From the NCBI GenBank assembly GCA_041652535.1, contig JBAZHB010000001.1, positions 2,870 to 66,869 on the forward strand: a DNA stretch of 64,000 nt, given 5' to 3'. Of this stretch, positions 32,538-34,885 are shown piece after piece. Position numbers and translations under genes: made by a program. Numbering within the stretch: position 1 is the stretch's first letter; the number at the start of each line of letters is the position of its first letter. The notes under the pieces are model-generated. The model did no database searches. It saw only the letters and a program-made list of their open reading frames with translations, and was not told where the DNA came from. This DNA comes from Candidatus Babeliales bacterium. GTDB taxonomy: Bacteria; Babelota; Babeliae; Babelales; RVW-14.

Positions 32538-33344
32538 ATGAAGAGTTTCTTACGCTTAATACTTTCTATGATGTTTGTCGCATTGGGCTGTTCTCAAACA
32601 GAGTTTTTATATGCTGCTCAGCAACCGCAGCAGCATAAGCGAAAAATGAAACAAGAGGCAGAAGAAGAATCGATTTCGAAAAAGCCTCGCGAAGAAGAAA
32701 AAGAAGAAGCTGAGCGCATTAATTGCAACATCGTTGAAATCACGGCAGAAAATTTTAAAGAAAACGAGCCGTTACTTGCTGCCTTAGGGCCAATTTACGC
32801 TGCTGCATTTTTGGAAGATGAAAGAAGGTTGCATCTTACATTAGGGATTGTTGAAGAAACAGCGGTCATTATTGAAATATTAGAAAATAGATGGAAACAA
32901 GAAATAAGAAAACTCAGAAAAAGTTTAAATAGTGAGCATCCTAAACGTTGCGTTTTTATTACTCTTTCAAACGAACGAAACGAACTAATTGGATTTACGA
33001 AGTTCTATTTCAGATCACAAGAGAGCTATATTCGCAGTTTAAAGAGCGGCGCCGGTGATGCACAGAATGTAATAATAGCGCCAATTTCTCAAGCCTTGCC
33101 TGAAGCGGAAGATGTTTATATTGAATACATTGGAATAAAACCAGGATATGCCCACAAGGGCCTTGGCAAAGAAATGATGAATTATATTCAGGCGATTCCA
33201 AGTATCAGATTGATATATTTGGAAGTGGGTGCTGATAATAAAATAGCCATTGGGTTTTATGAAAGACTCGGTTTCAAGCAGCAAGGTAATTATTCATTTG
33301 TGGACAACCTTTGCTACATCTATTCAAAGGTTATACAAAAATAA
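32538..33344 (+). CDS. Signal-peptide-bearing GNAT family N-acetyltransferase (paralog 1 of 3)
   Basis: ATG 32538 follows a GGGGGA RBS. Signal peptide MKSFLRLILSMMFVALGCSQ and a charged linker. GNAT motif A IGIKPGYAHKGLGKEMMNYI, plus NKIAIGFYERLGFKQQG. Confidence 0.8.
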   Translation: MKSFLRLILSMMFVALGCSQTEFLYAAQQPQQHKRKMKQEAEEESISKKPREEEKEEAERINCNIVEITAENFKENEPLLAALGPIYAAAFLEDERRLHLTLGIVEETAVIIEILENRWKQEIRKLRKSLNSEHPKRCVFITLSNERNELIGFTKFYFRSQESYIRSLKSGAGDAQNVIIAPISQALPEAEDVYIEYIGIKPGYAHKGLGKEMMNYIQAIPSIRLIYLEVGADNKIAIGFYERLGFKQQGNYSFVDNLCYIYSKVIQK

Positions 33345-33361
33345 TTTTCAGTTCGATAAAA

Positions 33362-33433
33362 GGATTAATTATGAAAATATTCCGCTTGTTAAGTTTGTTG
33401 AGTCTTGTATTTTTTTCGACCTGCGCTGCAATG
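33362..33433 (+). repeat. 5' cassette A, copy 1 (RBS plus signal-peptide coding region)
   Basis: 72 nt with 2 mismatches to 34070-34141. Sequence similarity drops sharply right after the ...GCTGCAATG end. Confidence 0.9.
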
Positions 33434-34069
33434 AAAGTCGAAGAAGAGAAAAAAGAAGAAACTGATATTAAAACTCAATTGATTGAAATTACGGAACAAA
33501 ATTTTACAGAGGCAAGACCTGTATTTGATGATTATTTAAAACCAATCTACCTTGCGGCATTTTTGCCATTGGAGAAGGCATCATCTAATGCCTCCATCGA
33601 AGTGGCGACTTCTGAACTAGAAAAAACGTGGCAAAGTAACATAGGCAGTCTTTTTGAAGATGAGTACCCAGCCCCTTGTCGTTTTATGATTACGTATAAC
33701 AGCAAGGAAGCTATTGGATTTGCGCAGATTCGCGTAAAATCGCCAAAAAAATACTTTAGCAGTCTCAGAGAAGAGGCTAAAGAAGATGATATAAAAAATC
33801 TAAAAGTATTATCAGCTTTCAAAAAATCAAAGAAACAAGGAATCTATATTGAAAACATTGCTATAGCACCAAAGTTTAATCACAAAGGCATTGGAACCCT
33901 AATGATGAATGAAATTCAGAAAACACCAGCTGAATTCATATATCTGGATGTAGCAACTCGCAATATTCCCGCCATTCAATTTTATAAAAAATTAGGGTTT
34001 AAAAAGGTAGGGAGTTATGCAGTTGATGGTGGTGATGACTTTTGTATCTACGCGAAGCTTAACCGATAA
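33371..34069 (+). CDS. Signal-peptide-bearing GNAT family N-acetyltransferase (paralog 2 of 3)
   Basis: Start at ATG 33371 (MKIFRLLSLLSLVFFSTCAA). Motif A IAIAPKFNHKGIGTLMMNEI, plus NIPAIQFYKKLGFKKVG. Confidence 0.8.
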   Translation: MKIFRLLSLLSLVFFSTCAAMKVEEEKKEETDIKTQLIEITEQNFTEARPVFDDYLKPIYLAAFLPLEKASSNASIEVATSELEKTWQSNIGSLFEDEYPAPCRFMITYNSKEAIGFAQIRVKSPKKYFSSLREEAKEDDIKNLKVLSAFKKSKKQGIYIENIAIAPKFNHKGIGTLMMNEIQKTPAEFIYLDVATRNIPAIQFYKKLGFKKVGSYAVDGGDDFCIYAKLNR

Positions 34070-34141
34070 GGATTAGTTATGAAAATATTTCGCTTGTTAA
34101 GTTTGTTGAGTCTTGTATTTTTTTCGACCTGCGCTGCAATG
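34070..34141 (+). repeat. 5' cassette A, copy 2
   Basis: GGATTAGTTATGAAAATATTTCGCTTGTTAAGTTTGTTGAGTCTTGTATTTTTTTCGACCTGCGCTGCAATG, compared with copy 1 (2 mismatches). Confidence 0.9.
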
Positions 34142-34885
34142 CAAGTAGAGCCAGGTGCCGACGAGGAAAAGACGGTAGAAAGAGTAGAAGAAAAAAAGGG
34201 TGGCGTTGTTGTTAGGGTTATTCCAATCACAGCGCAAAATTTTGAAGAAAACAGGCTTCTGCTTGCCGAATTAGGCCCTGTTTATGCAGCAGCATTTTTT
34301 GAAGAAGAAAAAAAAATCTTGATTAAAGCTGGTACTTTTGAAGAAGGCTTTGATATTGCTAAGTTCTTAGAAGAAGAGTGGCAAAAGGATATAAAAAAAC
34401 TCGAAAAAAACTTAAAGGGTAAATATCCTGAAGATTGTATTTTTGTTACTGTTTCCACCGAACACGACGAACTGATTGGATTCGCAAAAATATATTTAAG
34501 ATCGCAAGATGAATTTATTCGCATCTTAGCTGACGAAGACGGTGGAGAGAATATAACTATAGCGCCAATAGCCCAAGCATTACGTGACGGACTTGATGCG
34601 TATATTGAATGTATTGAAATAAAACCAGAACATGCACACAAAGGCTTCGGTACGTTACTGATGAATACAATCCAGATGCTTCCACGTATCAGATTGATAT
34701 ATTTTGAGGTATTTGTTGATAATGGCTCGGCCATCAATTTTTATACAAAATTAGGTTTTATGCAACAAGGTAGTTATTTACATGGCGGTGTGAATTACTA
34801 CATTTGTTCAAAAATTATACGAGGAGGACTTCGTCCTTCATTCAAACCTTATCACCCAAAAAGAAAACGCAAACTGTCTTTTTGA
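34079..34885 (+). CDS. Signal-peptide-bearing GNAT family N-acetyltransferase (paralog 3 of 3) with a basic C-terminal tail
   Basis: Identical signal peptide MKIFRLLSLLSLVFFSTCAA. Motif A IEIKPEHAHKGFGTLLMNTI, plus GSAINFYTKLGFMQQG. The C-terminus is ...HPKRKRKLSF. Confidence 0.8.
   Translation: MKIFRLLSLLSLVFFSTCAAMQVEPGADEEKTVERVEEKKGGVVVRVIPITAQNFEENRLLLAELGPVYAAAFFEEEKKILIKAGTFEEGFDIAKFLEEEWQKDIKKLEKNLKGKYPEDCIFVTVSTEHDELIGFAKIYLRSQDEFIRILADEDGGENITIAPIAQALRDGLDAYIECIEIKPEHAHKGFGTLLMNTIQMLPRIRLIYFEVFVDNGSAINFYTKLGFMQQGSYLHGGVNYYICSKIIRGGLRPSFKPYHPKRKRKLSF

Follow-up and report, generated by a model that had tools for sequence, protein, structure and literature searches.

Three adjacent genes in the 64,000-nt stretch of DNA analysed here (the window: positions 2,870 to 66,869 of contig JBAZHB010000001.1, assembly GCA_041652535.1) encode paralogous acetyltransferases of the GNAT superfamily, each headed by an export-type leader. 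Our reading of this trio (c1, c2 and c3; Table 1), to which we give a probability of about 0.5, is that it forms an operon of exported, catalytically intact enzymes in a Babeliales parasite of protists, acting at the bacterial surface or in the host. Export of the proteins is likely; their action on the host we only infer, as we do the outer-membrane route, the acceptor substrate and any nuclear targeting. A first-pass annotation of the DNA had proposed secreted effectors of a host-associated bacterium. The source is indeed a metagenome-assembled genome of the Babeliales (Dependentiae/TM6). These bacteria are, to our knowledge, widespread and almost uncultured parasites of protists, and we know of no effector enzyme of theirs that has been characterised.

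The three open reading frames (ORFs) follow one another on the plus strand and code for proteins of 268, 232 and 268 amino acids, as annotated, with intergenic gaps of 26 nt (c1-c2) and 9 nt (c2-c3). A Shine-Dalgarno-like run, GGGGGA, is found 8 nt 5' of the c1 ATG; the JGI gene calls give c1 in a 258-residue version that starts at Met11. The 287-nt AT-rich intergenic region 5' of c1 contains a sigma-70-like site, a weak candidate for the operon promoter; promoter-like sites are no more numerous in this region than expected from shuffled sequence. Together with the strong bidirectional terminator hairpin 3' of c3, the site fits a single operon. Directly upstream of the terminator hairpin, in the 3' region of c3, lies a second inverted repeat (ACTCAATGCATTGAGTAAAATTACTCAGTCCATTGAGTAAA, 35086-35148); an Rfam scan of positions 31000-36000 returned only sub-threshold miRNA noise, located on terminator hairpins and on this repeat. 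GC content is lower in the trio (0.36-0.37) than over the whole window (0.404).

All three proteins match Pfam Acetyltransf_1 (PF00583; E 4e-13 to 7e-12, 46-50 bits against a gathering cut-off of 20.7) and, also above cut-off, Acetyltransf_7 (PF13508). Their similarity to NCBIfam models, among them RimI, PaiA and other GNATs, is weak and sub-threshold and approaches no equivalog cut-off; the trio is therefore assigned to no named equivalog. Motif A reads AHKGLG in c1 (residues 205-210), NHKGIG in c2 (170-175) and AHKGFG in c3 (186-191), in agreement with the HKGLG, HKGIG and HKGFG first quoted for it. Both glycines are kept, and a structural model of c3 places them where helix 190-199 begins. 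In place of the Q/R of the Q/RxxGxG motif the trio has Ala (c1, c3) or Asn (c2), a tolerated deviation, since the contacts to coenzyme A (CoA) come from the main chain. The pattern N..A..FY..LGF, present in all three copies, had been taken for the beta-bulge; this was an error, the segment being GNAT motif B, which forms alpha4/beta6 in the c3 model. Residues that are invariant or near-invariant in a 27-member family alignment (in c3 numbering, W101, G134, F135, P183, G189, G191, L209, N215, F221, Y222, G226 and F227) are all kept in c1-c3, so that, judged by their residues, all three look like catalytically competent, intact GNATs. The CoA motifs are intact in every copy.

The model of c3, made with AlphaFold2 from a 15-sequence alignment, has a mean pLDDT of 82, with block means of 70-97, mostly >90, over residues 41-250. 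The N-terminal helix (residues 3-19) is of low confidence, and residues 21-31 and 251-267 are disordered (pLDDT <50). The order of the core elements is that of a canonical GNAT, beta1-alpha1-alpha2-beta2-beta3-beta4-alpha3-beta5-alpha4-beta6(-beta7); alpha1 and alpha2 are long helices, and beta3 and beta4 have an insertion between them. Foldseek comparison of c3 with the PDB returned GNATs only, namely PaiA, SpeG, NatD/Naa40, Naa60 and aminoglycoside acetyltransferases (E 1e-9 to 1e-6, identity 10-22%, probability 1.00 to many, target-normalised TM <=0.69), and a PDB sequence search gave the same picture of generic GNAT neighbours, polyamine acetyltransferases included. The annotated completeness of the GNAT cores is borne out by the above-threshold Pfam matches of c1-c3, the fold of the c3 model and its Foldseek neighbours. 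With PaiA (1tiq), SpeG (4jjx/7kx3), RimI, NatD/Naa40 and Naa60 the trio shares the fold order, the GxG loop between beta4 and alpha3 and the Asn/Tyr of motif B; it differs from them by its low identity (10-22%) and by the addition of an export leader, a charged linker, the long alpha1/alpha2 helices and the beta3-beta4 insertion. Foldseek comparison with BFVD found only generic viral GNATs (10-19% identity) and no sign of exchange with giant viruses.

The leaders of the trio were called by sequence rules only. Each n-region is basic (MKSFLR or, in c2 and c3, MKIFR; charge +2) and is followed by an uncharged, Ser-interrupted stretch of 13-16 residues (16 in c2 and c3) and then by a C-terminal flank of charge -1 to -3 (-3 in c2 and c3). 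Given the basic n-region and the acidic flank, the positive-inside rule predicts translocation of the C-terminal domain. A Glu/Lys-rich charged linker of 10-45 residues comes behind each leader. By these rules the N-termini are leaders of export type, as had been claimed, and they are like the leaders of BamA and the secretins of the window, whose export is obligatory. In c1 the hydrophobic region ends in VALG↓C18 (arrows mark predicted cleavage), which matches the lipobox [LVI][ASTVI][GAS]C (PROSITE PS51257-like) and resembles sites in two other ORFs of the window, VFGA↓C at 57980-58516 and LICG↓C at 58557-59228; c1 is thus probably a lipoprotein. The c2 and c3 leaders read FFST↓C18 and fail the lipobox at -1 (Thr); candidate sites for signal peptidase I (SPase I) are TCA↓A or CAA↓M. 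Cys is found at residue 18 in all three copies and recurs in an outgroup protein, P0009, whose IFIS↓C19 matches the lipobox (IFIS↓C19-SSMKVDDEK against STC18-AAMKVEEEK in c2); with this conservation, a lipoprotein fate for all three is a live possibility. Secretion outside the bacterium, as originally put forward, has the export leaders in its favour, but a free secreted form needs qualification: some or all of the copies may be membrane-tethered lipoproteins, given the c1 lipobox and Cys18.

A Met codon falls right after the predicted cleavage site of c2 and c3 (Met21; 33431-33433 and 34139-34141), and a Met follows the leader in relatives P0009, P0010, P0013, P0016 and P0026 as well (SSM-KVDD, SFSM-SM, TQA-MEHD, LLSM-NSD and IICM-QST). 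An internal start at Met21, which would yield a cytoplasmic isoform of c2 or c3, is not favoured, as no Shine-Dalgarno sequence lies ahead of it.

Relatives of the trio are few. A search of 5.8 billion proteins returned, at strong E-values, only the three paralogs themselves, which are 37-50% identical to each other. An exhaustive hidden Markov model search of 1.84 billion representative proteins yielded three closer outside relatives (P0008, P0009 and P0010; E 5e-38 to 1e-28) and about 25 full-length relatives of 230-270 residues (E 1e-15 to 1e-8). A follow-up profile search, which added at least seven proteins to the larger group of relatives, called group 2, recovered a sequence of candidate division TM6 bacterium GW2011_GWF2_37_49; the family members with a named source, two in number, are both from Dependentiae. 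Scans of GTDB genomes and JGI metagenomes with the close-subfamily alignment met only generic GNATs of unrelated taxa. The N-terminus is hydrophobic in 25 of the 33 family members examined, and in the close subfamily and a few others it takes the form of a short cleavable-type leader with acidic flanks. In a distance tree P0009 and P0010 fall outside a clade ((c1,c3),c2) made up of the trio, which is therefore a lineage-specific triplication; the family of leader-bearing GNATs to which it belongs is small and has no name.

The course of events that we propose runs as follows. A lineage-specific triplication would have produced the three-gene operon of GNAT acyl-CoA N-acyltransferases in an intracellular parasite of protists. 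The Sec pathway would probably export the proteins from the bacterial cytoplasm, c1 most likely leaving as a lipoprotein with a long charged tether, and c2 and c3 being processed at an SPase I site (TCA↓A or CAA↓M) or through an atypical lipobox. We know of no acyl-CoA outside the bacterial cytoplasm, and an exported GNAT would for this reason need host acetyl-CoA; the trio would draw on it either in the host cytosol or in the periplasm of a metabolite-importing bacterium. The enzymes would most likely act at the bacterial surface, or inside the host after type II or outer-membrane-vesicle release, and in the host they would acetylate host molecules. A nuclear destination there would be compatible with the basic PKRKRKL tail of c3. 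If the enzymes do act on the host, a bacterium with a reduced genome would be using acetylation to rewire its eukaryotic host with neither a type III nor a type IV system, acyl-CoA-dependent enzymes would be able to work outside the bacterial cytoplasm, and three related but diverged enzymes would be at hand for mapping specificity.

GNAT effectors are well established in intracellular bacteria (VipF, Ceg10, Eis). Among known enzymes with which the trio might be compared, VipF of Legionella, which the first-pass annotation had named as a precedent, has tandem GNAT domains, and Eis of Mycobacterium tuberculosis is a GNAT that works outside the bacterium and acetylates host proteins, as a three-domain hexamer without a classical signal peptide. 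VipF, Ceg10 and Eis were all absent from the PDB sequence matches at E <=1 and from the best 50 fold matches, and the BFVD matches included neither VipF nor Eis. The likeness to VipF, a Dot/Icm effector targeting eIF3 (PMC10936415), and to Ceg10, a nuclear acetyltransferase effector of Legionella (PMC12773746), is one of function: both are acetyltransferases of an amoeba-dwelling intracellular bacterium that use host acetyl-CoA on host targets. They lack a Sec leader, however, and reach the host by type IVB secretion, whereas each protein of the trio has a single GNAT domain behind a Sec or lipoprotein leader, and the window showed no genes for type IV secretion. The precedent therefore stands as an analogy, and not as a specific relation. 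Eis is cited as a "GNAT effector" in PMC4828791, a paper on Hg-GLAND1 of Heterodera glycines, a FAM7 GNAT and candidate secreted effector with a signal peptide. Like the trio, Hg-GLAND1 joins a signal peptide to a GNAT in a parasite; unlike it, this is a eukaryotic gene of actinomycete origin whose product uses the eukaryotic secretory pathway, with no specific sequence relation shown. That a protein with a Sec leader can reach the host cytosol from an obligate intracellular bacterium is illustrated by chlamydial HtrA (PMC3107777). The same logic applies to the signal-peptide-bearing effector candidates (ankyrin proteins, hydrolases) of Chromulinavorax destructans, a cultured member of the same phylum, which rely on the same kind of Sec leader (PMC6561590); acetyltransferases are not mentioned in that paper. 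In the papers covered by a literature search, there was no description of the trio's family, of its leader mosaic (see below) or of exported GNATs in Dependentiae. The trio is thus best placed as a set of leader-bearing candidate effector enzymes of Dependentiae within the GNAT superfamily.

It is possible, although we consider it rather unlikely, that the three proteins are periplasmic or envelope-tethered housekeeping or detoxifying GNATs that never enter the host. They would then modify an envelope component or a host small molecule (a polyamine or an aminoglycoside-like compound) with host acetyl-CoA that reaches the periplasm, and the source of that acetyl-CoA would be their remaining interest. 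Much that weighs against action on the host can be read in this way. The canonical lipobox of c1 and the conserved Cys fit it, the succession of lipobox, disordered tether and globular domain is the standard layout of a lipoprotein, and a lipoprotein anchor would keep the enzyme on the bacterium. The polyamine acetyltransferases SpeG and PaiA are the trio's best neighbours in sequence and fold and its closest relatives of solved structure, so that a small-molecule acceptor is possible; the similarity is, however, weak (about 15-22% identity). Group-2 genes are single-copy, and in two genomes they adjoin a gene for a PadR-family regulator (L001 6686-8780; L019 5001-6405). Since these distant relatives, whose N-termini are anchor-like (see below), adjoin PadR regulators, the ancestral role of the family may be housekeeping. 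In L001 a 259-residue polytopic membrane protein is encoded between the PadR gene and the GNAT gene. In another distant relative, the metagenomic P0024 (486 residues, on a 2.9-kb contig), a hydrophobic leader precedes a LicD-family domain (PF04991, E 3e-19) that is fused N-terminally to the GNAT, which hints at chemistry of the envelope or of glycans; P0136 looks like a truncated protein of this build. Nor does a leader by itself mark an effector, for by a crude rule 29 of the 57 ORFs in the window have a signal-like or anchor-like N-terminus, and one of these encodes a ferritin, which shows that leaders are also found on domains not expected to act on a host. Leaders are borne by 44% of the coding sequences of C. 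destructans (PMC6561590). In this phylum, then, a leader alone is unremarkable, and the points of interest are the putative extracytoplasmic use of acyl-CoA, a nuclear-localisation-like tail on c3 and the exchange of leader cassettes. The ratio of nonsynonymous to synonymous divergence (dN/dS) of the gene bodies, 0.38-0.46, lies below 1 and thus gives no sign of overall positive selection, a weakly informative value in that dS is near saturation. Against an envelope role, on the other hand, a literature search in a limited corpus found no report of a periplasmic acyl-CoA pool or of GNAT activity there, and the triplication of the trio, its rapid divergence, its narrow distribution and its setting in an island of leader-bearing orphan, ankyrin and zinc-finger genes fit interaction with a host better than housekeeping in the envelope.

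The most far-reaching version of host action would make the trio the first Sec-exported GNAT nucleomodulins of Dependentiae, secreted by the type II system or displayed on the surface as lipoproteins, acetylating host proteins with host acetyl-CoA, with c3 in the nucleus and the genes belonging to an effector island that exchanges leader cassettes (c2/c3 and the chimeric ORF 36628-37188). We hold this full combination to be improbable. Its nuclear element comes from the disordered tail of c3 (pLDDT <50), where PKRKRKL, which resembles an SV40-type monopartite nuclear localisation signal, might direct the protein to the host nucleus. The K-K/R-x-K/R pattern is found in this tail and also in the c1 linker (KRKMK). 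Runs of five basic residues occur in two of the 57 window proteins, against 0.32 expected, the other being IF-2. The tail is compatible with targeting to the host nucleus and provides a lead, not evidence; as a single short pattern, it too belongs among the reservations about host action.

An alternative of low probability would dispense with export altogether: the N-termini would be uncleaved anchors, and the GNAT domains would face the cytoplasm from the inner membrane and use bacterial acetyl-CoA. Such a location would remove the problem of acetyl-CoA supply. Many group-2 relatives have 15-22 hydrophobic residues directly before basic ones (RYK, RFK, RQR) with no intervening linker, N-termini that look like uncleaved anchors of ambiguous topology and that likewise count against host action of the family. 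In the trio, however, the uncharged stretch is limited to 13-16 residues and broken by Ser, and the charges on its two sides predict translocation of the C-terminal part; the lipobox of c1 and the charged linker of 10-45 residues behind the leader also speak against an anchor.

Comparison of the three genes revealed a mosaic. The annotation had noted that c2 and c3 share a 72-nt segment with two mismatches (33362-33433 and 34070-34141), which is correct (70/72 identical); a repeat finder extended the shared tract to 82 nt (95% identity between its two copies, A and B). The c2/c3 leader sequence occurs only at these two places in the window, and none of 100 shuffled versions contained it; with c2 and c3 55% identical over the rest of their alignment, 70 or more matches in 72 positions would arise by chance with a probability of 5e-16. 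In codons 1-21, c2 is 98% identical to c3, and c1 is 42-43% identical to either. The bodies have diverged as substantially as had been stated, with nucleotide identities of 66% (c1-c3), 55% (c2-c3) and 57% (c1-c2). Synonymous divergence is 0.08 in the c2/c3 leader against 0.8-1.5 in the bodies (1.5 for c2-c3), and the leader and body trees disagree, the latter being ((c1,c3),c2). The near-identity of the leaders, set against bodies that are 55% identical and group c1 with c3, makes this a genuine mosaic. The tract includes the non-coding ribosome-binding site (RBS), synonymous sites and non-coding bases are both conserved in it, and its boundaries are sharp. Homogenisation or recent exchange of the leader, the interpretation offered in the annotation, agrees with these data, and a recent short tract of gene conversion or recombination is the best explanation for the c2/c3 leader. 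In our scheme such an event would have extended from the stop codon ahead of the gene to about codon 24.

Selection on the nucleotide sequence, as a regulatory RNA or translation element, would be a different way to keep two leaders alike, and we judge it very unlikely. The conserved tract does span the RBS and the first codons, which are under the constraint of translation initiation. RNA folds of the tract are, however, not more stable than those of shuffled sequence (z +0.4 to +0.8, values that rule out an explanation by RNA structure), and the two copies fold differently; the tract has no Rfam match and c1 does without it, and synonymous and non-coding bases are conserved alike up to sharp edges. 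The same sharing of leaders is seen, moreover, in adjoining orphan genes. Three of these, arranged in tandem, have a common RBS-plus-leader cassette that is 79-88% identical in nucleotide sequence, and their bodies are 32-50% identical, the same pattern of shared leader and different body as in c2 and c3. One of them (36628-37188) is chimeric: its first 22 residues are 82% like those of its neighbour, and its C-terminus is homologous to the protein encoded next to it, at 37205-37951 (41% identity over 34 residues, E 4e-7). Homogenisation or exchange of an RBS-plus-signal-peptide module between neighbours is a simple way for mature domains to diverge or be replaced without loss of export competence.

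We reject a defence-system or toxin reading, as PADLOC gave no match for the trio; toxins of the TacT/AtaT/KacT type are leaderless GNATs of about 160-175 residues with an adjacent small ribbon-helix-helix antitoxin gene, whereas the trio proteins have 232-268 residues and leaders, and no small partner ORF is present.

Table 1. Position of the GNAT trio, its sequence elements and neighbouring features in the window.
Feature	Position	Strand	Remarks
GNAT paralog c1	32538-33344	+	Leader residues 1-18 with lipobox VALG↓C18 (32538-32591)
c1 linker	residues ~19-62		Glu/Lys/Gln-rich; contains HKRKMK
c1 GNAT domain	residues ~63-268		CoA loop AHKGLG 33150-33167; motif B 33237-33275
Leader cassette, copy A	33360-33441	+	RBS (AAGGA), ATG, c2 codons 1 to ~24
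GNAT paralog c2	33371-34069	+	Leader MKIFRLLSLLSLVFFSTCAA↓M, then short acidic linker, then GNAT domain
c2 CoA loop and motif B	33878-33895; 33962-34000		Loop NHKGIG
Leader cassette, copy B	34068-34149	+	Starts inside c2 stop codon; RBS, ATG, c3 codons 1 to ~24
GNAT paralog c3	34079-34885	+	Leader same as c2; GNAT core residues ~41-250
c3 CoA loop and motif B	34634-34651; 34721-34759		Loop AHKGFG
c3 basic tail	residues 251-268		Disordered; contains PKRKRKL; KRKRK 34859-34873
Sigma-70-like promoter candidate	32448-32475	+	TTGAAA-16-TAAAAT, 10/12 matches
Terminator-like hairpin, bidirectional	35160-35203		16-18 bp; between GNAT operon and convergent orphan gene 35225-35884(-)
Leader-bearing zinc-finger protein	31549-32250	-	Divergent from c1; C-x2-C-x14-C-x2-C-x4-H-x2-C-x17-C-x2-C
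Orphan genes in tandem	35225-35884, 35925-36569, 36628-37188	-	Common 90-nt RBS-plus-leader cassette
Type II secretion / type IV pilus-like cluster	38157-46753	-	
GspD-like secretin 2	38157-40652	-	
PilM/GspL-like gene	41208-42926	-	
GspD-like secretin 1	42923-45601	-	
GspC	45626-46753	-	
Ankyrin-repeat, leader-bearing ORFs	580-1539	+	
Ankyrin-repeat, leader-bearing ORFs	6465-8864, 11342-12780, 17100-17675	-	
373-aa protein, signal-like leader	12746-13867	-	Weak sub-threshold ATPgrasp_ST match, E 3.5e-4
Ferritin-like protein	55524-56114	-	Pfam Ferritin E 8e-27; 17-residue N-terminal hydrophobic segment
Tyrosine/dual-specificity phosphatase	58557-59228	-	Y_phosphatase3, E 1e-9; lipobox leader LILICG↓C20

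The genes around the trio provide a candidate outer-membrane route for Sec-exported proteins, in the form of a type II secretion or type IV pilus-like cluster that lies 3.3-12 kb away, its near end 3.3 kb from c3. We know of no sequence signal by which substrates of type II secretion can be recognised. The cluster also includes one unassigned ORF of 182 amino acids. A type II system with two gspD copies is conserved in all TM6 genomes (PMC4776705), and the window cluster, with its two GspD-like secretins, matches it. The two secretin genes share a 46-nt stretch of 80% identity (repeat D5). Beyond GspC lie genes for a MoxR-type AAA ATPase (46842-47834) and a sigma-54-type response regulator (47864-49294).

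Leader-bearing ankyrin proteins, typical effector candidates of Dependentiae, are also encoded in the window. The ankyrin loci comprise at least eight ORFs with signal-like leaders, of which seven have ankyrin-repeat matches (7684-8220 has none), and several stand in tandem arrays. Over the four genes of the cluster at 6465-8864 the leaders are not homogenised (32-42% nucleotide identity). The ankyrin proteins and hydrolases of C. destructans that carry signal peptides are considered secreted effectors, and outer-membrane vesicles have been observed in that organism (PMC6561590). The leader-bearing protein encoded divergently from c1 has a C4HC3 cross-brace pattern of the PHD or RING-CH type followed by two C-terminal hydrophobic segments. 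Its Pfam matches are all sub-threshold (PHD, E 0.0026; Prok-RING_1, E 0.0023), a PDB sequence search gave no significant match, and a single-sequence AlphaFold2 model reached a pLDDT of 51, too low for use.

Some further genes of the window deserve mention. The phosphatase at 58557-59228 is another eukaryote-type signalling enzyme with an export or lipoprotein leader. The 373-residue protein directly adjoins leader-bearing ankyrin genes and may be another cofactor-dependent exported enzyme. Lastly, an ORF of 310 amino acids (19321-20253, minus strand), adjoining the gene for ATP synthase subunit a (20250-21191), matches ATP synthase subunit c (PF00137, E 6e-38) in four separate places; it may encode a c subunit with several hairpins fused into one chain, or the ORF may have been called too long.

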